The translations under genes and the position numbers were made by a program. This document shows positions 2,445-28,652 of a stretch of 33,344 nucleotides of DNA, piece after piece (the stretch's first letter is position 1; every line of letters starts with the position of its first letter). The stretch comes from an uncultured Candidatus Saccharibacteria bacterium (GTDB lineage: Bacteria; Patescibacteriota; Dojkabacteria; SC72): assembly GCA_964465815.1 (NCBI GenBank), contig CAYXLF010000001.1:1-33344 (forward strand). Direction: 5' to 3'. Under the pieces are notes generated by a model. The model did no database searches, was not told where the DNA came from, and saw only the letters and a list, made by a program, of their open reading frames with translations.

Positions 2445-3812
2445 ATGAAGAACTTCTTTATTCCAACTCAAAAAAACAGATACAAACCATACTTACTTCG
2501 AAAAGTGGCTTTGGTAGCATATTCTATTCTCATAGTTTTTGTTAATAGCTTTGGAGGTATTTTTGGCATAAGTAAAGTGGAAGCGAGTTCCATATCCATT
2601 GGGAATATTATCAATCTGACCAATCAAGAGAGAACGGCAAGTGGACTTAATGCATTAAATGAAAATTCACAACTGGATGCCGCAGCGTTGGCTAAAGCAA
2701 ATAATATGTTTGAGCAACAGTACTGGGATCACTTCGGACCCAACGGAGAGACTCCATGGCAGTTCATAAGGGCAGAAGGGTACAATTATGTCTATGCAGG
2801 CGAGAACCTTGCAAAAGGCTTCCAGACGGCGGAGGGAGTGCATGAGGCATGGATGGCAAGCCCAACACATGCTGCCAATATCATGAGTGGAAATTATAAG
2901 GATATAGGTGTGGCAGTAGTACAAGGCGTTCTTTTAGGAAAGCAAACAACTCTTGTAGTACAGATGTTTGGTAATTTAACAACAAGTGTCGCTGGAACCT
3001 CTACATCTGGAAGTACCAAATCTTCTAGTGGAACAGTGGTGGGTAATGAACACGGCGAGATCAAAAGTATAAGAATAACATCACCAGTACAATCCTCCAT
3101 ATCTACAGATCCTAGCCTAAATATTCAGGGGGAGACGGTAAATGTATCGGGAGAGTATGTTGTCGAAGTGTTAGATAACTCTGCGGTTGTTGGCGAGACA
3201 TCTTCTAGTGGAAATAGCTGGGAGTATGACAAATCTGGGGATTGGGCAGAGGGGGAGCATGTTCTAAAAGCTCAGGTTAAAGGAGAGAATGTTGTTTCTC
3301 CTGAGATTAGCTTTTCCATTGATTCTACTGCACCAGTTGTAGATCTTGCATCGATAACTGTTAACAAAAATCCCGATTCATATACATTGGCATTCCAGAT
3401 TGACAATACATGGACGGATCTTCGTATAGTCAATGGCGCGAATACAATCACGATTACGTCGGAAGACAAAGAAAATATCACAGTTGAAATACCATCAAGT
3501 GGATTAGGAACAAAAATTGTCATTATGGCTTCAGATATCCTAGGTAACGTCTCTCAGACTGATATTACAGAGTATTTTAAAACCGATAATGAAAAGACAA
3601 ATATAATCTTAAGTCTTCTTAACGCAAATATAGGAGACCAAATAAGTGTAGGTATTGTAATTCTGATATTTGTATTACTATGTCTTGAAACTTTTGTATA
3701 CTGGAAGAAAGGCAAATTGAAAGAAATGGTTGGAGATCTGTTTACGATTGGTGCATGGTGGCTAATATTAACGGTTGCAATATTTAATGGATTTACTGGT
3801 TTAATTAACTAA
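2445..3812 (+). CDS. CAP/SCP (YkwD-like) domain exoprotein with N- and C-terminal membrane segments
   Basis: 455-aa ORF with an N-terminal TM helix. The CAP-domain core reads NQERTASGLNAL ... HFGPNGETPWQF ... YAGENLAKG ... AWMASPTHAANI ... YKDIGVAV. An S/T-rich beta-rich region and hydrophobic C-terminal helices follow. Confidence 0.75.
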   Translation: MKNFFIPTQKNRYKPYLLRKVALVAYSILIVFVNSFGGIFGISKVEASSISIGNIINLTNQERTASGLNALNENSQLDAAALAKANNMFEQQYWDHFGPNGETPWQFIRAEGYNYVYAGENLAKGFQTAEGVHEAWMASPTHAANIMSGNYKDIGVAVVQGVLLGKQTTLVVQMFGNLTTSVAGTSTSGSTKSSSGTVVGNEHGEIKSIRITSPVQSSISTDPSLNIQGETVNVSGEYVVEVLDNSAVVGETSSSGNSWEYDKSGDWAEGEHVLKAQVKGENVVSPEISFSIDSTAPVVDLASITVNKNPDSYTLAFQIDNTWTDLRIVNGANTITITSEDKENITVEIPSSGLGTKIVIMASDILGNVSQTDITEYFKTDNEKTNIILSLLNANIGDQISVGIVILIFVLLCLETFVYWKKGKLKEMVGDLFTIGAWWLILTVAIFNGFTGLIN

Positions 3813-5322: not shown

Positions 5323-5786
5323 TCAATAGCTTGGACTACATATCTTGTATCACCTTTTGGTGTAGAGATTGTAACTTCTGCACCTAATTTCTTTCCCATT
5401 ATGGCTTCTCCAATGGGGGATAGATGAGAGATTTTTCCTTCTAATGGATTTGCCTCGTCTTCACTCGTGATTTCATACTTAATGTCTCTTTGTCCCTTTA
5501 ATGTGACTATATCTCCTATACCAACTATACTTTTATTTTTGTCTGTGACAACTTTTGCAGATTTGATTTTATCCTTAAGTTCAAGAATTTTTTCTTCATT
5601 AATCTGTTGTTCTTCGATAGCCATGGAATAAGCGTCATTCTCGCGTAAGTCTCCCTGATTTCGCATTTCATTTAGGGTATTTGCGATCTTCGCTCTTAGG
5701 ATCTCCTCTCGCTCTTTGAGCTCATCCTTTAGTTTTTTAAGTCCGGACAGTGTTGTCTGATATATGTTTTCACTCATATCTGACAT
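5319..5786 (-). CDS. greA: Transcription elongation factor GreA
   Basis: 155-aa ORF with a coiled-coil N-terminus carrying the canonical tip GDLRENDAY. The C-terminal globular domain reads ISHLSPIGEAIMGKKLGAEV. Confidence 0.9.
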   Translation of the reverse strand: MSDMSENIYQTTLSGLKKLKDELKEREEILRAKIANTLNEMRNQGDLRENDAYSMAIEEQQINEEKILELKDKIKSAKVVTDKNKSIVGIGDIVTLKGQRDIKYEITSEDEANPLEGKISHLSPIGEAIMGKKLGAEVTISTPKGDTRYVVQAID

Positions 5787-5830
5787 CGCTGAATTTAATG
5801 GAAAAACATGATATTACTATGAGTATATGA

Positions 5831-5858
5831 TGTCAATAGGGAGAAAATATGATAGAAT
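5831..5858 (+). promoter_or_regulatory. Putative promoter for tRNA-Glu (extended -10)
   Basis: TGTCAA (5831-5836), a 16-nt spacer ending in TGa, then TAGAAT (5853-5858). It sits about 22 nt upstream of the tRNA. Confidence 0.45.
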
Positions 5859-5977: not shown

Positions 5978-6613
5978 ATGGCAAAAGTTTTTAACATTAC
6001 AGCATCGATGAATGAAAAAGTTGAAGAATTTTATAAAGAGGCAGTCAAAGAATTAGAAAAATTCTATGAACTTGGCTGGAATCAGAATCCTCCTAAAATC
6101 TATCTTGTTCCAGATAGAAAAACATTCAATGAGTTATATAACAAGGAAACCGAAGCTTGGGTGGTTGGAACAACAATGAGCTCGAATAATGTTTTTTATG
6201 TGTTGTCTCCGGAATCTTATGAAAATGAAAGTAATCATACGTATTCGGATGAAGAATATTTCAGATTAATAAAACATGAATTAAGTCATCTTTATTCAAA
6301 GAAACTATTCGATAGCTATAAACCTATTTGGTTTAATGAAGGGATAGCGATATATACTTCGGGACAAAATGTTGTTAAAACTAAACCACAAAAATTTGTC
6401 AAATTCATGGATTTCTTTGATAAAGGTGGTGGTGGTGTATATGCCGAATCAGGATTCGCGGTAGAAATTTTAATCAAAGAAATAGGTAAAGAGAAATTTT
6501 TAAAGATGTTAGAAAAAATAGAGTTACCCGTTACGGAGGAATCATTTAAAAATCATTTTAAAAAGAATTTTAATATTGATTTAACTTATGATTGGTTTAA
6601 TGAAAGACTATGA
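5978..6613 (+). CDS. Putative zinc metallopeptidase (HExxH, gluzincin-like)
   Basis: 211-aa ORF with HELSH followed by WFNEGIAIY, a possible third-ligand Glu. No signal peptide is evident. Confidence 0.5.
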   Translation: MAKVFNITASMNEKVEEFYKEAVKELEKFYELGWNQNPPKIYLVPDRKTFNELYNKETEAWVVGTTMSSNNVFYVLSPESYENESNHTYSDEEYFRLIKHELSHLYSKKLFDSYKPIWFNEGIAIYTSGQNVVKTKPQKFVKFMDFFDKGGGGVYAESGFAVEILIKEIGKEKFLKMLEKIELPVTEESFKNHFKKNFNIDLTYDWFNERL

Positions 6614-7251
6614 AATTTGATATCATCACAATCTTCCCTAATATCGTGGAGGAATATATAAATACGGGAATAGTAGGAACTGCCAAGGGAAGAGGAGTCG
6701 TGGAGATCAATGTGCATAACCTTAGGAAATGGACCACAGACAAGCATCAAAGTGTAGATGATACCCCCTGTGGTGGTGGCCCAGGAATGATCATGAGGAT
6801 AGAACCAATATATGCAGCTATACAGGAATTAAAACAGAAAGATACCATTGTGGCCATAACTACTCCTAAAGGACGAAAATTAGAACAGAAAGATCTTAAG
6901 AACTTTTCTGAGCAAAAAGAGCTCCATATGATCATCTTGTGCGGAAGATACGAAGGATTTGACCAGAGAATACATGAGCATCTGGTAGACTACGAATTCT
7001 CCATAGGAGACTATGTACTCTCTGGAGGAGAGTTGGCATCCCTTGTCCTAGTAGACGGTGTTACTAGGCTTCTTCCTGGAGCTTTGGGTAACGAAGAATC
7101 TTTAGTAGATGAATCATTTAATGACGGTACGACTTTGGATTACCCGCAGTATACCCGACCAATTGAATTCAATGGATGGAAAGTCCCAGAAATACTTTTA
7201 ACAGGAGATCATGAAAAAATTAAAAAATGGAGAGAGTCTCAGAGAGGGTAA
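6610..7251 (+). CDS. trmD: tRNA (guanine37-N1)-methyltransferase TrmD
   Basis: 213-aa ORF with MKFDIITIFPN, DDTPCGGGPGM, CGRYEGFDQR and GDYVLSGGE. ATGA overlap with the upstream gene. Confidence 0.93.
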   Translation: MKFDIITIFPNIVEEYINTGIVGTAKGRGVVEINVHNLRKWTTDKHQSVDDTPCGGGPGMIMRIEPIYAAIQELKQKDTIVAITTPKGRKLEQKDLKNFSEQKELHMIILCGRYEGFDQRIHEHLVDYEFSIGDYVLSGGELASLVLVDGVTRLLPGALGNEESLVDESFNDGTTLDYPQYTRPIEFNGWKVPEILLTGDHEKIKKWRESQRG

Positions 7252-7273
7252 ATAGGCGATTCTTGAGGGATGG

Positions 7274-7302
7274 TTTGCACAGCAATTTCAGTCATATATA
7301 AT
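7274..7302 (+). promoter_or_regulatory. Putative sigma70-type promoter for the greA paralog
   Basis: TTTGCA (7274-7279), 17-nt spacer, TATAAT (7297-7302). Confidence 0.5.
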
Positions 7303-7339
7303 ATACTATAGAGTGGGTTTAAATTAAGAACCTATCACT

Positions 7340-7810
7340 ATGAAAGAAAAAGAAAAAATTTTACTTACGAAAAAGAAGAAAGAAGAGTTAGAGCAAGAGC
7401 TTAGTGATTTAGAAAACATTAAGAAACCTGAACTCTCAAGTAATCTTGCAGCTGCCAGGCAAAACGATTTGAGTGAGGATACCGACGATTTGAGTATAAT
7501 ACTTGTTGAGAAGGAGGTGATTGAGAATAGAATTGCGGAGCTTAAAGCAATACTATCTAAGGCTAAAATCTTTATCAAAAGAGTTTGTACTCCACAAAAG
7601 ATTGATATAGGGTCTAAAGTATCGGTTGAATTCAAAGGCAAAAAGCAGATGATGACGATTGTTGACCAATTAGAGGCAGATCCTCTTAAAGGCTATATCT
7701 CAGATCACTCACCTTTGGGAAAGGCTTTAATGAAGTCTAAGGTAGGGCAGACTGTAACAATCAAGGTTAGTGGAAAAACTGTAGAATACAAAGTGCTAGA
7801 GATTTGCTAG
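7340..7810 (+). CDS. GreA-family transcription factor, divergent paralog
   Basis: 156-aa ORF of the same length and layout as GreA. The tip motif is altered to NDLSEDTDD. The C-terminal domain reads ISDHSPLGKALMKSKVGQTV. Confidence 0.8.
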   Translation: MKEKEKILLTKKKKEELEQELSDLENIKKPELSSNLAAARQNDLSEDTDDLSIILVEKEVIENRIAELKAILSKAKIFIKRVCTPQKIDIGSKVSVEFKGKKQMMTIVDQLEADPLKGYISDHSPLGKALMKSKVGQTVTIKVSGKTVEYKVLEIC

Positions 7811-9079
7811 CTCTTCGATACTTACACGTTTCTGTTCCATTGTGTCCCTGTCTCTTACTGTGACGGTATTGTCTTCCAATGTCTGGTAATCGACAGTTAT
7901 ACAATATGGAGTACCAATCTCATCTTGGTATCTATATCTTTTCCCGATATTTCCTCTTGCATCCCATACTACTTTCTTAGTATCTGTTAATTTCTCGAAT
8001 ATATCTCTCGCCTTACTTACGATCTCAGGTTTGTTAGAAACCAATGGGAATACTGCAGCCTTGTATGCGGCGATCTCAGGATTAATTTTTAATACTGTTC
8101 TAATCTCTCCATTTGCAAGTGCCTCTTCCTCATACGAGTCTAGTAGGAGGAACAAAAATGTCCTATCTACACCACCAGAAGTCTCAACAATGTGAGGGAT
8201 ATATTTCTCACCAGTCTGAGGATCGGTATATGAAAGATCTTTTCCGGAGAATTTACTATGCTGTGTAAGATCATAATCAGATCTCCAATGAATACCTTCG
8301 TTTTCAGCCCAACCCCATGGTGCTAAATATTCAATATCAAATGCTTTTTTTGCATAGAAAACTAATTTGTCTTGTGGATGCTCATAGAATCTCAGATTCT
8401 CATGTTTTCGGTAGAGATTTTTGTAGAAATTCATTCTCTCATTCTTCCAATATTCAAAGGCTTCTTCCATCATGGATGGATGTACAAAGTATTGAAGATC
8501 CCACTGCTCAAACTCTCTTGTTCTAAATGTGAATTTGTTAGGTGTAATCTCGTTTCTGAATGCTTTACCGATCTGTGCGATACCAAAAGGAATCTGTTGC
8601 CTGGTGGAATCTACAACATTCTTAAAATCTAAATAAATGGTCTGACAAGCCTCACCTCTTAAATACGCAGGAACCTTGTCTCCCTCTACAACACCAATCT
8701 CGGTATTGAAGAGTAAGTTGTATTTTCGAGCCTCTGTGAAATCGGTACCACCACATCTTGGACATTTACCTTCTACATCTTCCGGTCTGAATCTTGCATG
8801 ACAATTCTTACATTCAACAGCTTCATCGCCGAAGCTTTTAACATGGCCCGACGCTTCCCAAACCTTTGGATGAGTGATAATGGTACCATCTATGCCAACG
8901 ACATTCTCTCGCTTGTCTACCATATTCTTCCACCAATACCTCTTGAGATTGTTTTTCATCTCAACACCTACTGGACCATAGTCATAGAATCCTCCTACGC
9001 CACCATATATCTCAGAATTCTGAAATATTATGCCTCTTCTTTTGCAAAGAGATGTGACTTTTTGTAACAGGTCTTCCAT
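7796..9079 (-). CDS. glyQS: Glycine--tRNA ligase (alpha2 class II type)
   Basis: 427-aa ORF with RGIIFQNSEIYGG, FRNEITP and GGVDR motifs, a CxxC...CxxC insertion and a C-terminal anticodon-binding domain. Confidence 0.92.
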   Translation of the reverse strand: MEDLLQKVTSLCKRRGIIFQNSEIYGGVGGFYDYGPVGVEMKNNLKRYWWKNMVDKRENVVGIDGTIITHPKVWEASGHVKSFGDEAVECKNCHARFRPEDVEGKCPRCGGTDFTEARKYNLLFNTEIGVVEGDKVPAYLRGEACQTIYLDFKNVVDSTRQQIPFGIAQIGKAFRNEITPNKFTFRTREFEQWDLQYFVHPSMMEEAFEYWKNERMNFYKNLYRKHENLRFYEHPQDKLVFYAKKAFDIEYLAPWGWAENEGIHWRSDYDLTQHSKFSGKDLSYTDPQTGEKYIPHIVETSGGVDRTFLFLLLDSYEEEALANGEIRTVLKINPEIAAYKAAVFPLVSNKPEIVSKARDIFEKLTDTKKVVWDARGNIGKRYRYQDEIGTPYCITVDYQTLEDNTVTVRDRDTMEQKRVSIEELANL

Positions 9080-9206: not shown

Positions 9207-12200
9207 ATGAAAAAGTCTCTCAAGATACTGCTTGTTTCAATGTGTTCAATCCTTGTGACCTTCTCTTTATTTTGCATAATTCCTCTACTTGGAGGATTGC
9301 AGAAATCATATGCAGCCGATCCATTTTTGATAGATATAAATCCAGGTACGGGAGATTCTAATATTGACAAATTAGTTGATGTTAACGGAATTCTTTATTT
9401 TCGTGCAACTAATGAAACAAGTGGAGTAGAACTATGGAAATCTGATGGCACGGTTGATGGAACATCGATGGTGAAAGATATCTATGCTGGAAGTAATGGT
9501 GGATACCCAGATAACTTAACGAATGTTAATGGAGTCCTTTATTTTAGTGCAACCGATGGAACAAATGGAGTAGAGCTATGGAAATCTGATGGAACTGAAG
9601 CCAATACTGTTATGGTAAAAGATATTACTTCTGGAAGCGCAGATAGCAGCCCTAGTGAGCTTATAGATGTCGATGGTACACTGTTTTTTTGGATTGATAA
9701 TGCATTATGGAAATCTGATGGTACAGCAGATGGAACGTTATTAATTAAGAATATAACTTCAGGTACGGGATATAGTAGATTTGCAGGAGCTGCACTTGGG
9801 AGTAATTATATTTTTCTTAGGAAAGATGAGTTATGGATTTCAGATGGAACTGAAGCCGGAACGATTAGGATAACTAGCTTCTATGCGGCAGGGGCTGTGA
9901 CATTAGATTATGTAAATGGTGTACTGCTCTTTGTTGGAACTGCAACTAGCAGCTCAGATCAAGAAATATGGAAAACAGATGGGACAGTAGCGGGTACAGC
10001 GATACTAAAAAGTGGAATAGGTTTAAGTGGCTATAACGGGCCTTTTCTCCTTGATGGAAGCCTCTATTTTTGGATATATGGAAGTGTTGGGTATGAACTT
10101 TGGAAAACAGATGGTACAGAAGCTGGAACGGTGAAAATAGAGGATTCTGCATATTCGGTTTCTAGCTCGGAATACCCCGTAGTTATGGGACAAAATGCAT
10201 ATTTTATAGCTGCAGACGGAGATTGGGCCTATGGAGAAGAATTGTGGACTACGGATGGAACTGCTGGCGGGGCTCATATGGTAAAGGATATTTACAGTGG
10301 AAGTGATGCTTCAAGCATCTCTGAGATTACAGCCGTTAACGGCATGTTGTATTTTAATGCTACGGACGAGACAGAAAATGGATACAATACTGAACCGTGG
10401 AAATCTGATGGCACAGAGGAAGGTACTGTTATGCTGGCAAATTTAAATACAGCTTTGGAAGAGGGTTCTTATCCAGAAAATTTTACCAAGGTTGGAGATA
10501 TGCTTTTCTTTGAAGCTTGGACTAATGAATATGGTACTGAATTATACAGTTTAAGTACTGCGGTAGAACTTTCAACGGACTCATCTCTTTCTGCCCTAAC
10601 GGTCTCTGATTGCTCATTATCTCCTACTTTTGATGCAGCAGAGACCTCGTATACTTGTACGGTATCCCAATCGATTGGATCGGTAAATGTAACTGGGACA
10701 ACGGCTTTTGTGGGGGCGACACTGACGGTCGATGGACTAACGGCCACATCAGGCAGTTCGAAAAGAGTTAACCTAATGTCTGGAGCCAATGAAATCCCTG
10801 TAACAGTAACGGCAGAGGATGGAACTACGACAACCACTTATACAATTTCTATTACGAAACCCACCATAGATGGTGCTTCCTATTATACATATGACTCTAC
10901 GCTAGATTTTGGAAATAGTAGCACCCTGGAAAAACCATATATATCTACAATTGATAAAGATAATAATATCATTGTAGGAGGTTACTATACTGGGACTACG
11001 TCTATAGATTTTGATCCTGGTGAAGGCACAGCAATGAGTCCTGCATCTCCCAATCATTTCATATTGAAATTAAACAGTAACAGAGAATTTGTTTGGGTTA
11101 AATTCTTTAGGATCATTAGTGGCTCTTTTAACGGTTTAGAAACAGATTCTAATGGGAATATATTTCTCGCAGGAACATATACGGATTATTTAGATTTGAA
11201 TCCATCTGTAAGTGCAGAACAAATTGTTGAATCTGGTCACGATGGTGCTGGTTTCCTAATTAAGCTCAATTCTTCAGGAACTTATGTTTGGGGTAGAGCA
11301 GACGATTTCCCAACAGGAGAGGTGGGATTATGGAATTTAGATGAGGTAGCTGATAATAGCTGCTCTGATGGAGGAGATGTGTGTGATAACAGTGGCATTG
11401 CAAATGATGGCATTCTTTACGGTACTGCACCAACTGTTAGTACCTCGAATGGAAAAGGTAGAGACTTTGATGGTGTTAATGGAACCTATGTTGATATTGG
11501 GGATCTTTCTCTTTTTGAAAACCAAACATTTACAATTGAGGCGTATGTAAAGAAAGAAGGAACGTGTGGAGCCTATGATTATTGTTCTATCATGTCTAAA
11601 GGATCATCAACCAACAAGGGATTTGGTTTTGGTATCTCAAATGGTAAGCTACAAATTCGTATTAACGATATGGGTACCTCAGGGGTAGAGTATTTAGATG
11701 GAGCTACAGATCTTGCCATTGATACATGGTACTACGTTGCCGCAGTTGTTAATGGGGAAGAAAAAACATTTGAATTGTATGTAAATAACTCATTAGATGC
11801 TTCAGGCTCTTTTACCGAGAGAATCAATTATGCGGGTTCTAACCATGTAAAGATAGGAAATGCGAATGATGGAAATGATTTGCCATTTAATGGTGTTATT
11901 GATGGGGTGAGATATTCAAATGTTGTGAGAGATTCAACATATATACAGAGTATGAATTCCAAATATACGACCGGAAGTGGAAGTGATGTAGGTTCGTATA
12001 TAGCACCTATTACTAGTCAAATAGGTGGACAGATTTCTGCCAATATAGTAGTTGATGAAAATGGAAGTGTTGTGGTGGGGTACAGTTCTGGTGATGCCTA
12101 TTCTTCTCCAATTTTTAGGAAATTTGATTCATCTGGGAATATTTTATGGACAAAGGAATTTGATAATACTGGTAATTCATATTTTACATTTGAATCTATT

Positions 12201-14915
12201 GCATTAGATAGCCAAGAAAATATTTTACTTAACGGTTATGTTCTTGGTGGCTTTGCAGATTTTAATCCTGGTACAGGTGTAGACCAGAAAACCCCGACAG
12301 GTGGGAATAAAGCAATCTTTGTTACTAAGCTGACGACAAATGGATCTTATGTTTGGACACAACTTATAAATTCTGCAAGTACAACCTTTGGAATCAATTC
12401 GATACTTAAAACAGATGGGGATGATAATATTCTTGTTTTCTCCGATTTTTATGGTACAGTCGATCTGGATCCTGGGCTCCCGACAGTCGATGTCACTTCC
12501 ATAGGAAATAACGATCTTCTTTTGTTAAAGTTAAACCCGAACGGAGAATATATTTGGGGTAAAAACTTTGCTGGGGCTAGTTATGATGAGGCAATTGATT
12601 TAGCGGTAAATTCTGATAATAATATCTTTCTATCTGGGTCTTCCAACTCAAGCACTATTACAGTAGACTCTTCGACTTTCAGTTTAGAAAAGAAAACTTC
12701 TTATAGAGAGCCAATCTTCCTAGAATTAAATTCTTCTGGAGATTACGTATTCTCTAAGGTAATTCTTGTAAATTCAAGTTCTCATGCTGAGACATATAAA
12801 ATATTGTTTGATTCTAATGATGATATGTATTACACGGGTTATTATACGGGATCCCTAGATTTTAATGATGGGGAGATAGCCCTAGAGAAATCTGTTTTCA
12901 CATCTCCATCAGATAGAAACATGTTCTTAGCGAAATACAACAAAGTTTTATCAACAAATTCTTCATTATCTTTGCTAAGTACCTCTGGCTTCACATTATC
13001 TCCTGCATTTGATAGCAGTGTTACTTCATATACGGGTAGCGTAGATTTCGTAGTAGACTCAGTTGATTTTATTCCGATCAGTGCTTTCCCAGGCGCGAGT
13101 GTTTCTATAAATGGTGAGGATGTGATGTCAGGAAATCAATACGAAATTAGCTTAGCAACTGGAGTGAATAACATTTCAATTGTTGTTACCGCAGAAGATG
13201 GTGTAGCAACCTCTACGTATAGTATTGTGATCACGAGAAATACAGCTTCTACGGTTTCCTCATTATCAGCCTTAAGTATTTCAGGTTGTATGTTATCTCC
13301 AAGTTTTAGTAGTGAAGTCAAAGCATATTCGTGTTTTGTACCATCCACACTTGCTTCGATCAATGTCATACCAACGGCGTCATCCTCGATGGCAAAAATA
13401 TCAGTCCGAGGTTCAAGCGTAATTTCTGGGAATGCGCATAATATATATATAGCTACTGGTGTTACCAATATCCCTATAATTGTCACAGCAGAAGATGGCC
13501 TAACAACATCCACATATAACATTACACTTACAAAATCTGCAGAGGATGTTTCATCTGATTCCTCCCTTTCATCGTTAGAGATTCCTGGAGTCATATTATC
13601 TCCTGCGTTCGACCCATCAATTACTTCATATACAGGAAATGTTGATTTTTATATTGATTCTATTAATATTATCCCAACGGCTTCTTCCCTAGGATCAATT
13701 ATTACTGTAAATGGTGTTAGTGTAGATCAGGGCGATTCATATTCTGTTGATTTAGAAGTAGGAATAAACGATATACTAATAATGATTACAGGAGAAGATT
13801 CAGAAACGACTTCAACGTATAATCTGAAAATAATAAAAGCATCCTCTACTATAGAGGAACCAACACGCACCACCCCAGACTCTACAGCAAGGCAGGATAC
13901 ACCACTCAAAGATGTCCTTAGTGTTCTTACGATAAGTATCTCTGAAGCGAGTAAGTATGTAGAAAAAACAATTCAGGAAATTCCAATCTCAGAACAAACA
14001 TCCCGAAATATTACAGCTGCAACCCTGGCTTTGATAGCGGTATCTCCCGCAGTATCTGTAGGGCTAGGCAGCTCGTACACTATTTCATATATAGCTAAAT
14101 TCTTCTCAATGATACTTGCTCTCTTTGGTATCGGTAGAAAGAAAAGGAACTGCGGCCTAGTATATGATTCTGTAACTAAAGAACCGGTCAGTAATGCCAT
14201 AGTCAGAATATATTCAACTGATGGTACCCTTGTAGCTACAGAGGTAACTGATGTATATGGTATCTTTGAAACTGATATTGAAAGTGGTCAATACAGTATT
14301 GTAACTCAAGTAAACAATTACAAATTTCCATCGATGCTTATTACGGGTACTCAAGACTTACCGTATGAGAATATCTATGGAGGAGGAAACTTCAATTATG
14401 ATTCTTCATCAAGTATAAGCTACTCAATACCAGTGGATCCTTTGGACAAATCAAATGCAGAATATGCAAATACCATAACTAAGCATAAATTGATAAACCT
14501 AACATCTTCGGCTCTAAATATACTAATGTTCATAGGATTAGTATTCTCAATCGTTTCTTACATCAAACTAAACAGTACTTTGAACCTTATTCTTCTCATA
14601 ATATATGTATTTTTAATAATATTAGGAATGATAAGGAGAAGGCAAGCGAGGTACAGATTTGGTACAGTTACAGACCGCTCTGGAGACAGCAAAAATGGTA
14701 TAGAGTTAGGCCTAATGGAGACGGAGTTTAATAGAATCTATGCAAAGAGAGTAACCAATGATGAAGGTAAGTACAGATTTATAGTTCCAGGGGGAGATTA
14801 CAAACTAGTATCGCTGGATCCAGAATGCTCCTTATATGGGGAGGTACTGGTTAGTGGGCGAAGTAAAAAAATAATGGTTGTTTCTGAGGACTTAGTTGCT
14901 GAAAGAAGAGTTTAA
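9207..14915 (+). CDS. Giant mosaic cell-surface protein (1902 aa)
   Basis: Signal/anchor at aa 1-36, cleavage-like SYA-AD. About 9 ELWxxDGT repeats (aa 40-450). Cadherin-like beta-sandwich (aa 458-551). SBBP-type repeats (aa 556-700). LamG/concanavalin-like domain (aa 705-915). More SBBP repeats (aa 935-1245). Three tandem cadherin-like domains (aa 1250-1545). C-terminal hydrophobic helices interleaved with two carboxypeptidase-regulatory-like modules. Confidence 0.85.
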   Translation: MKKSLKILLVSMCSILVTFSLFCIIPLLGGLQKSYAADPFLIDINPGTGDSNIDKLVDVNGILYFRATNETSGVELWKSDGTVDGTSMVKDIYAGSNGGYPDNLTNVNGVLYFSATDGTNGVELWKSDGTEANTVMVKDITSGSADSSPSELIDVDGTLFFWIDNALWKSDGTADGTLLIKNITSGTGYSRFAGAALGSNYIFLRKDELWISDGTEAGTIRITSFYAAGAVTLDYVNGVLLFVGTATSSSDQEIWKTDGTVAGTAILKSGIGLSGYNGPFLLDGSLYFWIYGSVGYELWKTDGTEAGTVKIEDSAYSVSSSEYPVVMGQNAYFIAADGDWAYGEELWTTDGTAGGAHMVKDIYSGSDASSISEITAVNGMLYFNATDETENGYNTEPWKSDGTEEGTVMLANLNTALEEGSYPENFTKVGDMLFFEAWTNEYGTELYSLSTAVELSTDSSLSALTVSDCSLSPTFDAAETSYTCTVSQSIGSVNVTGTTAFVGATLTVDGLTATSGSSKRVNLMSGANEIPVTVTAEDGTTTTTYTISITKPTIDGASYYTYDSTLDFGNSSTLEKPYISTIDKDNNIIVGGYYTGTTSIDFDPGEGTAMSPASPNHFILKLNSNREFVWVKFFRIISGSFNGLETDSNGNIFLAGTYTDYLDLNPSVSAEQIVESGHDGAGFLIKLNSSGTYVWGRADDFPTGEVGLWNLDEVADNSCSDGGDVCDNSGIANDGILYGTAPTVSTSNGKGRDFDGVNGTYVDIGDLSLFENQTFTIEAYVKKEGTCGAYDYCSIMSKGSSTNKGFGFGISNGKLQIRINDMGTSGVEYLDGATDLAIDTWYYVAAVVNGEEKTFELYVNNSLDASGSFTERINYAGSNHVKIGNANDGNDLPFNGVIDGVRYSNVVRDSTYIQSMNSKYTTGSGSDVGSYIAPITSQIGGQISANIVVDENGSVVVGYSSGDAYSSPIFRKFDSSGNILWTKEFDNTGNSYFTFESIALDSQENILLNGYVLGGFADFNPGTGVDQKTPTGGNKAIFVTKLTTNGSYVWTQLINSASTTFGINSILKTDGDDNILVFSDFYGTVDLDPGLPTVDVTSIGNNDLLLLKLNPNGEYIWGKNFAGASYDEAIDLAVNSDNNIFLSGSSNSSTITVDSSTFSLEKKTSYREPIFLELNSSGDYVFSKVILVNSSSHAETYKILFDSNDDMYYTGYYTGSLDFNDGEIALEKSVFTSPSDRNMFLAKYNKVLSTNSSLSLLSTSGFTLSPAFDSSVTSYTGSVDFVVDSVDFIPISAFPGASVSINGEDVMSGNQYEISLATGVNNISIVVTAEDGVATSTYSIVITRNTASTVSSLSALSISGCMLSPSFSSEVKAYSCFVPSTLASINVIPTASSSMAKISVRGSSVISGNAHNIYIATGVTNIPIIVTAEDGLTTSTYNITLTKSAEDVSSDSSLSSLEIPGVILSPAFDPSITSYTGNVDFYIDSINIIPTASSLGSIITVNGVSVDQGDSYSVDLEVGINDILIMITGEDSETTSTYNLKIIKASSTIEEPTRTTPDSTARQDTPLKDVLSVLTISISEASKYVEKTIQEIPISEQTSRNITAATLALIAVSPAVSVGLGSSYTISYIAKFFSMILALFGIGRKKRNCGLVYDSVTKEPVSNAIVRIYSTDGTLVATEVTDVYGIFETDIESGQYSIVTQVNNYKFPSMLITGTQDLPYENIYGGGNFNYDSSSSISYSIPVDPLDKSNAEYANTITKHKLINLTSSALNILMFIGLVFSIVSYIKLNSTLNLILLIIYVFLIILGMIRRRQARYRFGTVTDRSGDSKNGIELGLMETEFNRIYAKRVTNDEGKYRFIVPGGDYKLVSLDPECSLYGEVLVSGRSKKIMVVSEDLVAERRV
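9324..10556 (+). repeat. Intragenic ELWxxDGT repeat array (about 9 units, probable beta-propeller)
   Basis: Recurring VELWKSDGTVDGT, VELWKSDGTEANT, ALWKSDGTADGT, ELWISDGTEAGT, EIWKTDGTVAGT, ELWKTDGTEAGT, ELWTTDGTAGG, EPWKSDGTEEGT. The DNA core tggaaatctgatgg recurs. Confidence 0.8.
12954..13841 (+). repeat. Three tandem cadherin-like beta-sandwich domains (about 95 aa each)
   Basis: Each unit has the pattern SSLSxLxxSG..LSPxFxxxxxSYtxxV ... I.V...VTAEDG..tSTY.I.I. A fourth copy lies at 10578-10859. Confidence 0.75.
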
Positions 14916-14976: not shown

Positions 14977-16521
14977 ATGGAAGATACTCAAAGAAGTGAT
15001 CTACTCGGACAAAGACAGGTAAGATTAGACAAACTCGCAGAGCTTAAGAAGTTAGGGGTTAACCCATATCCAGCAAAATCATACAGGGATCATTCTAACG
15101 GAGAAGTATTAAACAAATTTGAGGAATTTGATGGGAAAGACGTATGTTTGGCAGGTAGAATCATAGCTTGGAGAGAGCATGGAAAATTGGTATTTGGGAA
15201 TATCCTTGATCAGACAGGAAGTATTCAGTTAATGATCAGAGAATCTGACTTAGTTGAGGATCTTCAAAAAGGATATTTAGGTTGGGATAAATTGTATCTT
15301 TTGGATCTTGCCGACTTTGTTGAATTGTATGGAACGATAGGGAAGACAAGAACAGGTGAGATCACCGTTATGGTTAAGAGTATTCGTCTCTTAACTAAAG
15401 CTTTGAGACCAATTCCTCGAAAATTAGAAAACAAGGAGCAGATATTTAGAAGGAGATATTTGGATTTAGTAGTAGATAATGAATCATTGAAGCTTTTTGA
15501 AAGAAAAGCGAAATTCTGGCAGGTACAGAGAGATTTCTTGAGAGATCATGGATTTATGGAAGTAGAGGTTCCTGTATTGGAAGCTGTAACTGGTGGCGCA
15601 GATGCTACTCCATTCATAACTCATCACAATGCCTTGGATCAAGATTTCTATCTTAGAATTTCCACTGAGTTGTATCAGAAAAGATTGATTGGTGGTGGGT
15701 ATGAAAAAATATATACTTTTGGCCCTAACTTTAGGAATGAAGGTATGGATGATGAGCATCTTCAGGAATTTTATGATATTGAGTGGTATTGGGCTTATGC
15801 AAATTACAAGGATAATATGCAGTTGGTACATGACCTATTCTTAGAGATTGCTAGCAAGGTATATGGGAAGACTCAGTTTACAACCAGAGGACATACTTTT
15901 GATTTAGCGAATGAGTGGAAGGAGATAGACTATACCTCCGTCATAAAGGAGAGGTTTGGTGTTGATATCTTTAACGATTCTGACGAAAAGATGTTGAGTG
16001 TGATTAAGGAGAATAACATTGAGATGGGTGGAGAGGTGAATAGGAATAGGATGATAGATACACTTTGGAAAGCTATTAGAGCTACCATATCAGGTCCTGC
16101 ATTCTTGGTAAATCAGCCTAAGTTTGTTTCGCCTTTAGCAAAATCACATCAGGATAATCCTGATTTAACAGAGAGGTTCCAGGTGGTTATTGCTGGTAGT
16201 GAATTGGGTAATGGTTATTCTGAGATTAATGATCCTCAAGACCAATTAGATCGATTCCTTGAGCAACAGGCTATGAGGGATAGTGGAGATAGTGAAGCAC
16301 AGATGTTGGATATTGATTTTGTAGAGATGTTGGAATATGGTATGCCTCCTGTAAGTGGTTATGGTCAGAGTGAGAGAATTTTCTGGTTCTTAGAAGATAT
16401 TTCTGGTAGAGAGGGTACTTTCTTCCCACAGATGAGAGTAGAGGTTGAGAATACTACAAAACAGATATACAAGGACAGAGTCAGATTCAAGGAGAATATT
16501 AAAAAAGAGGAAAAGAAATAG
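14977..16521 (+). CDS. lysS: Lysine--tRNA ligase (class II)
   Basis: 514-aa ORF with an N-terminal OB anticodon-binding domain. Class II motifs include FRNEGMD and ELGNGYSEINDP, followed by GMPPVSGYGQSERI. Confidence 0.93.
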   Translation: MEDTQRSDLLGQRQVRLDKLAELKKLGVNPYPAKSYRDHSNGEVLNKFEEFDGKDVCLAGRIIAWREHGKLVFGNILDQTGSIQLMIRESDLVEDLQKGYLGWDKLYLLDLADFVELYGTIGKTRTGEITVMVKSIRLLTKALRPIPRKLENKEQIFRRRYLDLVVDNESLKLFERKAKFWQVQRDFLRDHGFMEVEVPVLEAVTGGADATPFITHHNALDQDFYLRISTELYQKRLIGGGYEKIYTFGPNFRNEGMDDEHLQEFYDIEWYWAYANYKDNMQLVHDLFLEIASKVYGKTQFTTRGHTFDLANEWKEIDYTSVIKERFGVDIFNDSDEKMLSVIKENNIEMGGEVNRNRMIDTLWKAIRATISGPAFLVNQPKFVSPLAKSHQDNPDLTERFQVVIAGSELGNGYSEINDPQDQLDRFLEQQAMRDSGDSEAQMLDIDFVEMLEYGMPPVSGYGQSERIFWFLEDISGREGTFFPQMRVEVENTTKQIYKDRVRFKENIKKEEKK

Positions 16522-16585
16522 AAAAACGATCCCCAGGTGTGCTCTCATAAGAGAAGTCCTGCACGTGGTGCACTGGGGATCGTTT
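16522..16585 (-). terminator. Y-shaped intrinsic terminator of a minus-strand RNA, abutting the lysS stop
   Basis: 13-bp closing stem AAACGATCCCCAG / CTGGGGATCGTTT encloses two small hairpins (TGCAC-cac-GTGCA and TCTC-ttat-GAGA). The T-run follows the stem only on the minus strand (GATCGTTTTTC). Confidence 0.6.
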
Positions 16586-16661
16586 CCTCGTCTCGGCTTC
16601 ACACAGAGTGAATATCGGATCCCGTGGGACCAAATATTGTCTGAGCACCGAGTTAAACGAG

Positions 16662-16735
16662 TGGCCATGAAGGGATTCGAACCCTTAATACTCTGCGGTT
16701 ATTTGCAGTGCTCTTCCAGTTGAGCTATCAAAGCC
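16662..16735 (-). tRNA. tRNA-like gene with a non-canonical anticodon arm (atypical tRNA, pseudo-tRNA or tRNA-mimic module)
   Basis: Canonical D arm GCTC-AACTGGAA-GAGC and T arm AAGGG-TTCGAAT-CCCTT. Acceptor GGCTTTG/CATGGCC has a U.U mismatch. Three nt lie between acceptor and D stem. The anticodon arm is only 16 nt (CTGC-AAATAACC-GCAG). No CCA is encoded. Confidence 0.45.
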
Positions 16736-16851
16736 AAACGATGACGAGAGAGTGGGGAAGATAATCTTTCCCAGGGAAAGGAAGACACCTTCCACACTCT
16801 ATTCAAGTAGGGGAGTACTTGATACTCATCATCAGACATATTCAGTTGAAA

Positions 16852-16880
16852 TGAACAGGTGTGATTTTAGCAGATAGAAT
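16852..16880 (+). promoter_or_regulatory. Possible divergent promoter for the 16930 operon
   Basis: TGAACA (16852-16857), 17-nt spacer, TAGAAT (16875-16880). It overlaps the minus-strand promoter back to back. Confidence 0.3.
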
Positions 16881-16892
16881 ATTATGGGTCAA
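16864..16892 (-). promoter_or_regulatory. Near-consensus sigma70-type promoter driving the minus-strand RNA locus
   Basis: On the minus strand: TTGACC (16892-16887), 17-nt spacer, TAAAAT (16869-16864). Confidence 0.6.
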
Positions 16893-16929
16893 TATCCTTT
16901 AATATATATATTTCTGATATCATTAATAT

Positions 16930-17292
16930 ATGGAATCCATATCGGATATATTAAAAAACCTAAAGCCACAAACAGAGGAAAAGAAAGAAACCAAACAGCC
17001 AGAGCTTTTCAATATGGATGAAATAAAAGATAATCCCAAAAGAATGTTTGGAGACAAACACAAATACATATCTACTGAATATCAAGTATATGGATTAAGG
17101 TTAGCCGGGAAGTTAGGAGATACGAAGCGTACAACAATGTATATTAAATGGGCAAAAGAAAAACCAAGAGCAATACTAGAGATGGCTTACAGTTTTACAA
17201 TTGATTATCCTAATGCCAAAGATAAAAGCAAAATATTTATGTGGAAGGTAAAAGAACTTGAAAATGAGAGAAAGAGTAAAAAAGAACAATAA
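16930..17292 (+). CDS. Hypothetical small basic protein (120 aa)
   Basis: Intact ORF, K/E-rich with predicted helices. No motif recognised. Overlaps the downstream permease gene by 35 nt. Confidence 0.5.
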   Translation: MESISDILKNLKPQTEEKKETKQPELFNMDEIKDNPKRMFGDKHKYISTEYQVYGLRLAGKLGDTKRTTMYIKWAKEKPRAILEMAYSFTIDYPNAKDKSKIFMWKVKELENERKSKKEQ

Positions 17293-28575: not shown

Positions 28576-28652
28576 CGGGGCGTAGTTCAGATGGCTAGAG
28601 CGCTTGCATGGGGTGCAAGAGGTCGCACGTTCAAGTCGTGTCGCCCCGACCA
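28576..28652 (+). tRNA. tRNA-Pro (anticodon GGG), CCA encoded
   Basis: Manual cloverleaf. Acceptor CGGGGCG/CGCCCCG has the C1-G72 pair typical of bacterial tRNA-Pro. D arm is GTTC-AGATGGCTA-GAGC. Anticodon arm is CTTGC-ATGGGGT-GCAAG. T arm is GCACG-TTCAAGT-CGTGT, followed by ACCA. Confidence 0.9.

Follow-up and report, generated by a model that had tools for sequence, protein, structure and literature searches.

A tRNA-shaped gene with a shortened anticodon arm beside lysS in a Dojkabacteria genome

A cloverleaf with a 16-nt anticodon arm

Can a gene that folds as a tRNA, yet has no room for a seven-nucleotide anticodon loop, still serve translation, and if not, what else could it be? The question is raised by a 74-nt element in the window, the whole 33,344-nt stretch of DNA analyzed here. 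The window comes from a 69-contig metagenome bin (G000; 654 kb, 77% complete, about 36% G+C). The host is a WS6/Dojkabacteria bacterium of the Candidate Phyla Radiation (CPR) and has a bacterial-type initiator tRNA; no SSU rRNA was found in the assembly. The element and its arms are as follows.

16662-16735, minus strand: tRNA-shaped gene, a 74-nt cloverleaf (ARAGORN, Rfam, RNAfold), GGCTTTG-ATA-GCTC-AACTGGAA-GAGC-A-CTGC-AAATAACC-GCAG-AGTATT-AAGGG-TTCGAAT-CCCTT-CATGGCC-A
16735-16729 and 16669-16663, minus strand: acceptor stem GGCTTTG/CATGGCC (7/5 reading)
16728-16726, minus strand: linker ATA, three bases ahead of the D stem
16725-16710, minus strand: D arm GCTC-AACTGGAA-GAGC
16709, minus strand: A26
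16708-16693, minus strand: anticodon arm CTGCAAATAACCGCAG, 16 nt, CTGC-AAATAACC-GCAG
16692-16687, minus strand: variable loop
16686-16670, minus strand: T arm AAGGG-TTCGAAT-CCCTT
16662, minus strand: discriminator A (7/5 reading)

An earlier sequence-only reading had noted textbook D and T arms, a 16-nt anticodon arm with two possible folds, a loop T away from the U33 position, a U.U mismatch in the acceptor, three nucleotides between acceptor and D stem, an alternative reading with an 8-bp acceptor and a 4-bp T stem, and no encoded CCA; the minus-strand sequence agrees on every point. The anticodon arm is one base shorter than the canonical 17 and has A.C at position 31-39, and it folds either as 4 bp with an 8-nt loop or as five pairs, including the A.C, with a 6-nt loop. 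Because the sole U of the loop is the fourth of eight bases or the third of six, it is misplaced relative to position 33; it is followed by AAC and then a single C. A 7-nt loop with U33 is not possible, and codons would therefore not be readable. Decoding is very unlikely because the arm lacks the loop needed by ribosomes and by anticodon-reading synthetases.

The acceptor stem has U.U at 16731/16667 and U.G at 16732/16666, and since C, T and C come after the discriminator A16662, CCA is not genomically encoded. The whole can be read equally well as 7/5 with three linker bases or as 8/4 with two, and the U.U is present in both; the discriminator is A in the first register and C in the second, and the variable loop has 6-7 nt. 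The minimum-energy RNAfold structure of the 74 nt is the one with an 8-pair acceptor, a 4-pair T stem and two linker bases, and a MAFFT alignment likewise sets the first G as an extra 5' base. The cloverleaf forms unaided both in the isolated 74 nt and within a predicted 339-nt transcript.

ARAGORN, which the sequence-only reading had recommended as a check, gives an irregular call, labeled tRNA-??? with a 2-base anticodon 'ta'; its intron mode brings no gain and its tmRNA search found none. The Rfam tRNA model (RF00005) scores the element at 29.8 bits, just above the gathering score of 29 (E = 0.019 for the whole window against 4227 families), which ranks it last among the 30 tRNA matches that default filters recover from the 654-kb assembly. 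A chance match is excluded because homologous tRNA-shaped genes stand at the same syntenic place in relatives. Other families were far under threshold in a permissive Rfam scan of the spacer that holds the element, where only tRNA was found; a mascRNA-type element (RF01684) was considered and rejected at 17.6 bits against a gathering score of 42.5.

Agreement among independent assemblies

The short arm could in principle reflect an indel introduced into an ordinary tRNA gene by assembly or sequencing, as the fragmented state of the 69-contig metagenome bin and the short A runs in the loop might suggest. The stretch is found in sequencing runs of several studies. Separately built contigs, taken from one possible source run and from three further studies (wastewater in 2020 and 2025, sludge in 2024), agree base for base across the anticodon arm and have no indels over 16480-16923, at a low depth of about 4-6.5x in the independent runs. 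The other-study contigs X4, X6 and X7 span 16661-16735 without an inserted or deleted base, and on this ground we reject an indel, to which we assign next to no probability. In run X7 a strain variant carries G for A at 16686, a substitution that preserves the pair in the 7/5 register and falls on an unpaired base in 8/4; the changes of this strain are structure-neutral only.

A genus-specific slot between lysS and the next gene

The surroundings of the element in the window are listed below, together with the further parts of its predicted RNA unit.

14977-16521, plus strand: lysS, encoding a class II lysyl-tRNA synthetase and convergent with the RNA unit (Pfam domains tRNA-synt_2 and OB fold; 485 bits to NCBIfam lysine--tRNA ligase)
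16522-16586, minus strand: Y-shaped G+C-rich hairpin plus T run, predicted terminator of the RNA unit and of lysS on the opposite strand (RNAfold; directly after the lysS stop at 16521)
16587-16661, minus strand: irregular 75-nt hairpin joined to the 3' side of the cloverleaf (RNAfold)
16736-16857, minus strand: structured 5' leader of about 122 nt (minimum free energy -44.8 kcal/mol; z = -6.3 against dinucleotide shuffles)
16864-16892, minus strand: candidate sigma-70-type promoter TTGACC-17-TAAAAT with TG ahead of the -10 hexamer (10 of 12 consensus positions)
16930-17292, plus strand: ORF120, a conserved 120-aa ORF divergent from the RNA unit (comparison across relatives)

A BLAST search of the 201-nt locus against 40 relatives returned only short stretches inside the tRNA body, and orthologues were therefore sought by synteny. 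The gene order GlyRS-LysRS-[spacer]-ORF120-...-SerRS is common to the whole family. In five genomes from other genera, lysS and ORF120 are separated by 19-72 nt. The spacer of the window's genus, and that of metagenome relatives with at least 78% LysRS identity, extends to about 360-1600 nt and contains a minus-strand RNA unit. We refer to the tRNA-shaped genes in this position as slot genes. The flanking gene order is kept across the family, so the tRNA-shaped gene does not lie at the edge of a genomic island. A search of a phage collection gave only weak 75-nt matches to a Streptomyces-phage tRNA-Ala (76%), which leaves a phage origin unsupported. A link to ABC-2 permeases was rejected, as the downstream permeases are present also where the spacer is short. 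Between the GlyRS and LysRS genes the host genome alone has a 1902-aa ELWxxDGT-repeat protein (window 9207-14915, plus strand), with a partial match in G007; in the other genomes, G007 aside, the two synthetase genes adjoin.

Stems and loops of the slot genes

We parsed 13 slot genes arm by arm; the sequences are related, and the window's U.U is among the pairs counted. Standard pairs make up 254 of 260 over all four stems (acceptor, 90 of 91; D stem, 51 of 52; T stem, 63 of 65; inner anticodon stem, 50 of 52), while each acceptor position is occupied by three to six pair types and the lone mismatch among the 91 acceptor pairs is the window's U.U. As the 13 sequences are related, these counts overstate the number of independent events, yet even so the contrast between stems and loops across the aligned genes appears plain. 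The anticodon loops have 6 nt (G001), 8 nt (the window and locus L085), 13 nt (L089) or 7 nt, and those of 7 nt carry seven anticodons, TCG, GGT, GAT, CAG, GCC, TCC and TGT. The slot gene of G001 also has a bulged T stem, and that of G008 retains only the acceptor and T arms, having lost the D and anticodon arms.

The sequence-only reading had held that orthologues with a standard tRNA at this position would speak against an unusual element. Some relatives are indeed well formed, scoring 63-66 bits against 29.8 for the window's copy, with Gly-type bodies (GCC or TCC, U73 and CCA) or Thr-like bodies (TGT or GGT). Their anticodons vary and they duplicate ordinary genes in the same genomes, so their presence gives no ground for counting the window's copy as an ordinary tRNA. 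In each of G000, G001 and G005, no tRNA found scores lower than the slot gene. Anticodon arms with 5 bp and a 7-nt loop stand on a homologous stem in G007 (TTGCC-TTGGTAA-GGTAA) and G002 (GTGCC-CTTCGAA-GGCAT), and next to these the window's arm looks like such an arm minus one loop base and the closing pair. Traces of homology with both genes persist in the leader, the D arm and the anticodon stem, which indicates that the slot gene descended with rapid change and was not replaced.

Several slots differ in other ways. In G004 and G005 (L037, 6006-6077, and L040, 6966-7036, both minus strand) the slot genes have a T loop TGTAAAC and D loops without GG; their bodies are nearest tRNA-Lys(CTT) and their anticodon is GAT. 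Some spacers hold two tandem RNA units (L034 of G006, 6720-8260; L037 of G004, 5761-5831; L086, 4714-4785), each apparently, by eye, with its own promoter-like sequence. The spacer of G006 has an insert of 1.3 kb, containing an acidic ORF of 238 aa together with a second tRNA-like relic, and the upstream unit of L086 has a 21-nt T-arm stretch, TTAAGGGTTCGAATCCCTTCA, in common with the window's gene. In G008 (L039) the first unit of the spacer, at about 6350-6700, is a promoter-to-terminator RNA of about 330 nt without tRNA shape or Rfam match, which recurs as the second unit of L085.

Redundancy with the ordinary tRNA set

The G001 genome, 99% complete, has 45 ordinary tRNAs that serve all 20 amino acids with the slot gene excluded, and ordinary Thr(GGT) in G007 and Arg(TCG) in G002 are present outside the slot. 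Ordinary tRNAs of G000 and G001 are 91-100% identical, against 43 of 74 bases (about 58%) for the slot pair. The parent tRNA of the window's copy is ambiguous, with Ala, Asp and Lys scoring alike. Judged from these gene sets, the slot gene is supernumerary, with no decoding task left for it.

Non-standard decoding, in which an 8-nt or 6-nt loop would read a quadruplet or doublet or shift the frame at specific sites, is very improbable. Frameshift suppressors of the sufD type have a full 5-bp stem and an 8-nt loop in which U33 precedes the enlarged anticodon and a purine follows it. Unlike such suppressors and quadruplet-reading tRNAs, the window's element has a stem of only 4 bp and no U properly placed ahead of a candidate anticodon, as the U is fourth in the loop and the triplet AAC after it leaves a single loop base, C. 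Loop length and sequence differ in every relative, the window's genes are open under the standard code, and the near-complete G001 has its full ordinary tRNA set besides the slot gene. These points outweigh, in our view, the existence of natural working tRNAs with 8-nt loops, such as yeast mitochondrial tRNA-Thr(UAG) (PMC7609411), and the 8-nt loop of L085. Of the four explanations offered in the sequence-only reading, then, a pseudo-tRNA or decoding-incompetent mimic is supported, a non-standard decoder is disfavored and an assembly indel is rejected.

A predicted transcription unit

The candidate promoter lies 129 nt upstream of the tRNA-shaped gene. The pattern TTGAC[CA]-N16-18-TAnAAT has four matches on both strands of the whole 654-kb assembly, the window's promoter among them, and none of the other three is located in the 400 nt ahead of a tRNA called by ARAGORN. 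In 13 of 13 relatives examined, the tRNA-shaped gene has a near-consensus promoter (TTGACC, 17-18 nt, TAnAAT) 120-300 nt upstream. All 13 also have a folded leader (z from -1.6 to -7) and then a terminator in common with lysS. In the window the leader has a small 5' hairpin and a long two-tier helix that closes 4 nt ahead of the cloverleaf, and the fold of the predicted 339-nt transcript has z = -7.8. The 75-nt hairpin on the 3' side was not seen in the relatives examined, whose spacers pass directly from tRNA to terminator. On visual inspection, no convincing pairing of the anticodon loop with leader or trailer was seen.

The leader can be followed best between G000 and G007, where the consensus fold has 23 pairs, four of them changed on both sides, four on one side and none broken, while the four-fold sites of lysS in the two genomes are only 60% identical. 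An alignment of four leaders yields a weak consensus (-1.8 kcal/mol); only the comparison of G000 with G007 is informative.

These observations bear on the main rival to a functional reading, a recently dead spare gene. It would be a dispensable duplicate that still decodes in some species and has been disabled here by a loop deletion, its cloverleaf, promoter and leader not yet eroded. Disabling changes are seen elsewhere in the family as well, in the 6-nt loop and bulged T stem of G001, the 8-nt and 13-nt loops of L085 and L089 and the lost arms of G008, and the intact relatives, with their Gly-type and Thr-like bodies, look like coherent tRNAs. Within the family, the window's copy scores lowest with Rfam and has the lone acceptor mismatch, and the promoter and terminator may be kept for the neighboring genes. 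A dead gene would account less well for the leader helix, which covaries between G000 and G007 without a broken pair at a distance where lysS four-fold sites have diverged so far, and for its z of -6.3; nor would it readily explain stems that are all intact bar one mismatch in the window, or an X7 strain with only structure-neutral changes. On balance we consider a dead gene less likely than not, and it is the rival to be taken most seriously.

Preferred reading and its counterpoints

The evidence covers sequence, fold, independence of the assemblies, synteny, stem covariation, redundancy of the tRNA set and fast turnover of anticodons. Our preferred reading, which we hold tentatively at somewhat less than an even chance, is that the element derives from a genus-specific spare tRNA gene and is a decoding-incompetent, tRNA-shaped module of a larger structured RNA. 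A spare tRNA gene with a strong promoter and a long folded leader would have been inserted, in a single genus-level clade, into the gap that separates lysS from the gene after it, and selection across the clade would have kept all four tRNA arms and no particular anticodon, with the window's copy losing one anticodon-loop base and the loop-closing pair. Shape would thus be kept and the anticodon not: the sister slots contain tRNA-shaped genes whose anticodon loops are of many kinds.

The transcription, processing and present-day role of the RNA we infer as follows. An RNA of about 340 nt would be transcribed and fold into the leader helix, the cloverleaf, the 3' hairpin and the terminator. The tRNA-end-processing enzymes RNase P and RNase Z would recognize the cloverleaf, which could then act by shape only, determining where the flanking RNA pieces end or how stable they are, or could yield a stable tRNA-shaped RNA outside translation. 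We favor the shape-only module because the four stems are kept family-wide and the G000 leader covaries, which suggests selection for shape.

Three points qualify this preference. The window's copy is the most eroded cloverleaf of the family (lone acceptor mismatch, extra junction base, 6-nt variable loop, 29.8 bits), and decay would fit this equally well. The terminator would also serve lysS, and the promoter shares sequence with the region ahead of the divergent ORF at 16930, so that conservation of these flanking signals does not by itself establish that the RNA is used or matters. Finally, the complete loss of D and anticodon arms in G008 and the weak four-sequence leader consensus speak against the preferred reading.

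Possible use of the RNA away from the ribosome

An improbable further reading is that the genus keeps a dedicated, strongly transcribed tRNA-shaped RNA with a freely changing anticodon for use off the ribosome. It would serve either as a charged carrier or as a decoy or sensor for tRNA-attacking or tRNA-reading enzymes, and as a carrier it might in G000 be charged through a histidine-type G-1:C73 pair or feed a Fem-type cell-wall transferase. If this were true, the rapid turnover of the anticodon arm would reflect such use and not decay.

The specific form in which HisRS or another anticodon-blind synthetase charges the RNA, which then feeds a FemAB-type transferase or sits unused, seems quite improbable. 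Charging by HisRS could occur because the 8/4 register pairs the first G with C16663 in the manner of G-1:C73 of histidine tRNAs, and it is this register, with the first G as an extra 5' base, that RNAfold and MAFFT prefer. Irregular 8/4 tRNAs with G-1 and a non-His anticodon are charged by Escherichia coli HisRS, and the histidine is not inserted in E. coli (PMC5389517). Staphylococci retain non-proteogenic tRNA-Gly copies for Fem-type enzymes (PMC7826273), and the host genome has an ORF of this family:

Contig C3 of G000, 9400-10470, plus strand, outside the window: divergent FemAB-family ORF, 357 aa (about 31-33 bits summed)

Against these likenesses, the extra G and the C discriminator occur in no other member of the slot family, and the U.U mismatch lies within the acceptor stem. 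The T loop TTCGAAT and the D loop are ordinary, unlike those of the staphylococcal non-proteogenic tRNAs (PMC7826273), and the T stem is predicted to be a strong EF-Tu binder at -10.6 kcal/mol. The estimate uses a published additive model with A49-U65, A50-U64 and G51-C63 and the values given in Table 2 of PMC3239215. FemAB homologues are found in 35 of 41 relatives, including genera without a slot gene, and a specific link was rejected: the family is present, yet unspecific to slot-gene genomes. Its spread suggests that tRNA-dependent addition of cell-wall peptides may be common in the order. No aminoacyl-phosphatidylglycerol synthase domain was found.

Comparison with known tRNA-like RNAs

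Two parallels come closest to the preferred module reading. One is tRNA-Other of Bacillus cereus, described by Rogers et al. 2012 (PMC3399842) as a pseudo-tRNA that acts as a tRNA-like element in a larger regulatory RNA. The window's element likewise has a tRNA shape of apparently non-translational kind and may belong to a longer RNA that extends to both sides and has its own candidate promoter; the promoter of tRNA-Other is regulated. In that account tRNA-Other flanks a genomic island and has an established expression and phenotype, whereas the window's element stands in conserved synteny beside lysS; the two sequences are unrelated.

The other is the group of Acidobacteria allo-tRNAs and irregular tRNAs (Mukai et al. 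2017, PMC5389517), which form polycistrons of 7/5 and 8/4 tRNAs with highly diverse anticodons and have been suggested to be regulatory RNAs. The slot genes resemble them as accessory genes with diverse anticodons and a possible 8/4 branch, and the G-1 forms described there are charged and unused in translation. Allo-tRNAs in that account mostly have a long variable arm and serine identity. The comparison was made on these traits, and the window's element, with a variable loop of 6-7 nt and A or C as discriminator, lacks the marks of serine identity, which are a long variable arm and G73 or U73. What sets the window's locus apart is its 16-nt anticodon arm, its folded leader of 120 nt and its CPR host.

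In the staphylococcal non-proteogenic tRNA-Gly (Rietmeyer et al. 2021, PMC7826273), TGT or TGC replaces TTC in the T loop; an altered D loop and weak predicted binding to EF-Tu are further traits of this type. As in that system, the slot gene is an extra paralogue beside a full decoding set in a genome with a Fem-type transferase, and the slot genes of G004 and G005 share its TGT in the T loop and its D loop without GG. The window's copy differs in its T loop TTCGAAT, in its D loop AACTGGAA with GG and in its strong predicted EF-Tu binding. It also has neither glycine identity nor a usable anticodon, and the Fem gene is unspecific to slot genomes.

An ordinary elongator tRNA (RF00005) is matched in the cloverleaf and in the D and T loops, with a score just above threshold. 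It is not matched in the anticodon arm, where a 5-bp stem and 7-nt loop with U33 and purine 37 are missing, nor in the extra junction base, the acceptor mismatch, the orthologue identity of about 58% (compared with 91-100%) or the absence of a decoding task of its own. The element lacks defining features of each family tested and is best filed as a non-decoding tRNA-like RNA. No paper on tRNA-like elements in CPR bacteria turned up in a literature search.

Very small bacterial genomes rarely retain useless DNA, yet the whole genus retains an extra tRNA-shaped gene. With at least seven anticodon triplets, four loop lengths and arms kept by compensatory change, the slot genes offer a natural series in which selection for tRNA shape can be separated from selection for decoding. 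They would add a CPR example to the few non-translational tRNA-like RNAs (tRNA-Other, allo-tRNAs and non-proteogenic tRNA-Gly). For annotation, slot genes labeled Arg, Thr, Gly, Ile or Leu by tRNA finders should be credited with decoding capacity only after checks.

Two further tRNA genes of the host genome

Contig C25 of G000, outside the window, carries at 2614-2696 (plus strand) an 83-nt 'tRNA-Gly(TCC)' whose variable arm is about 15 nt long, scored at 34.4 bits. It is a second irregular tRNA of this genome and is without a counterpart in G001. Within the window, positions 28576-28652 (plus strand) hold a well-formed tRNA-Pro(GGG) with CCA, which scores 53.8 bits with permissive filters and is missed at default Rfam filters. 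Pro(CGG) and Pro(TGG) are the only proline tRNAs of the near-complete G001 and G005, so this gene may be a further lineage-specific extra tRNA.
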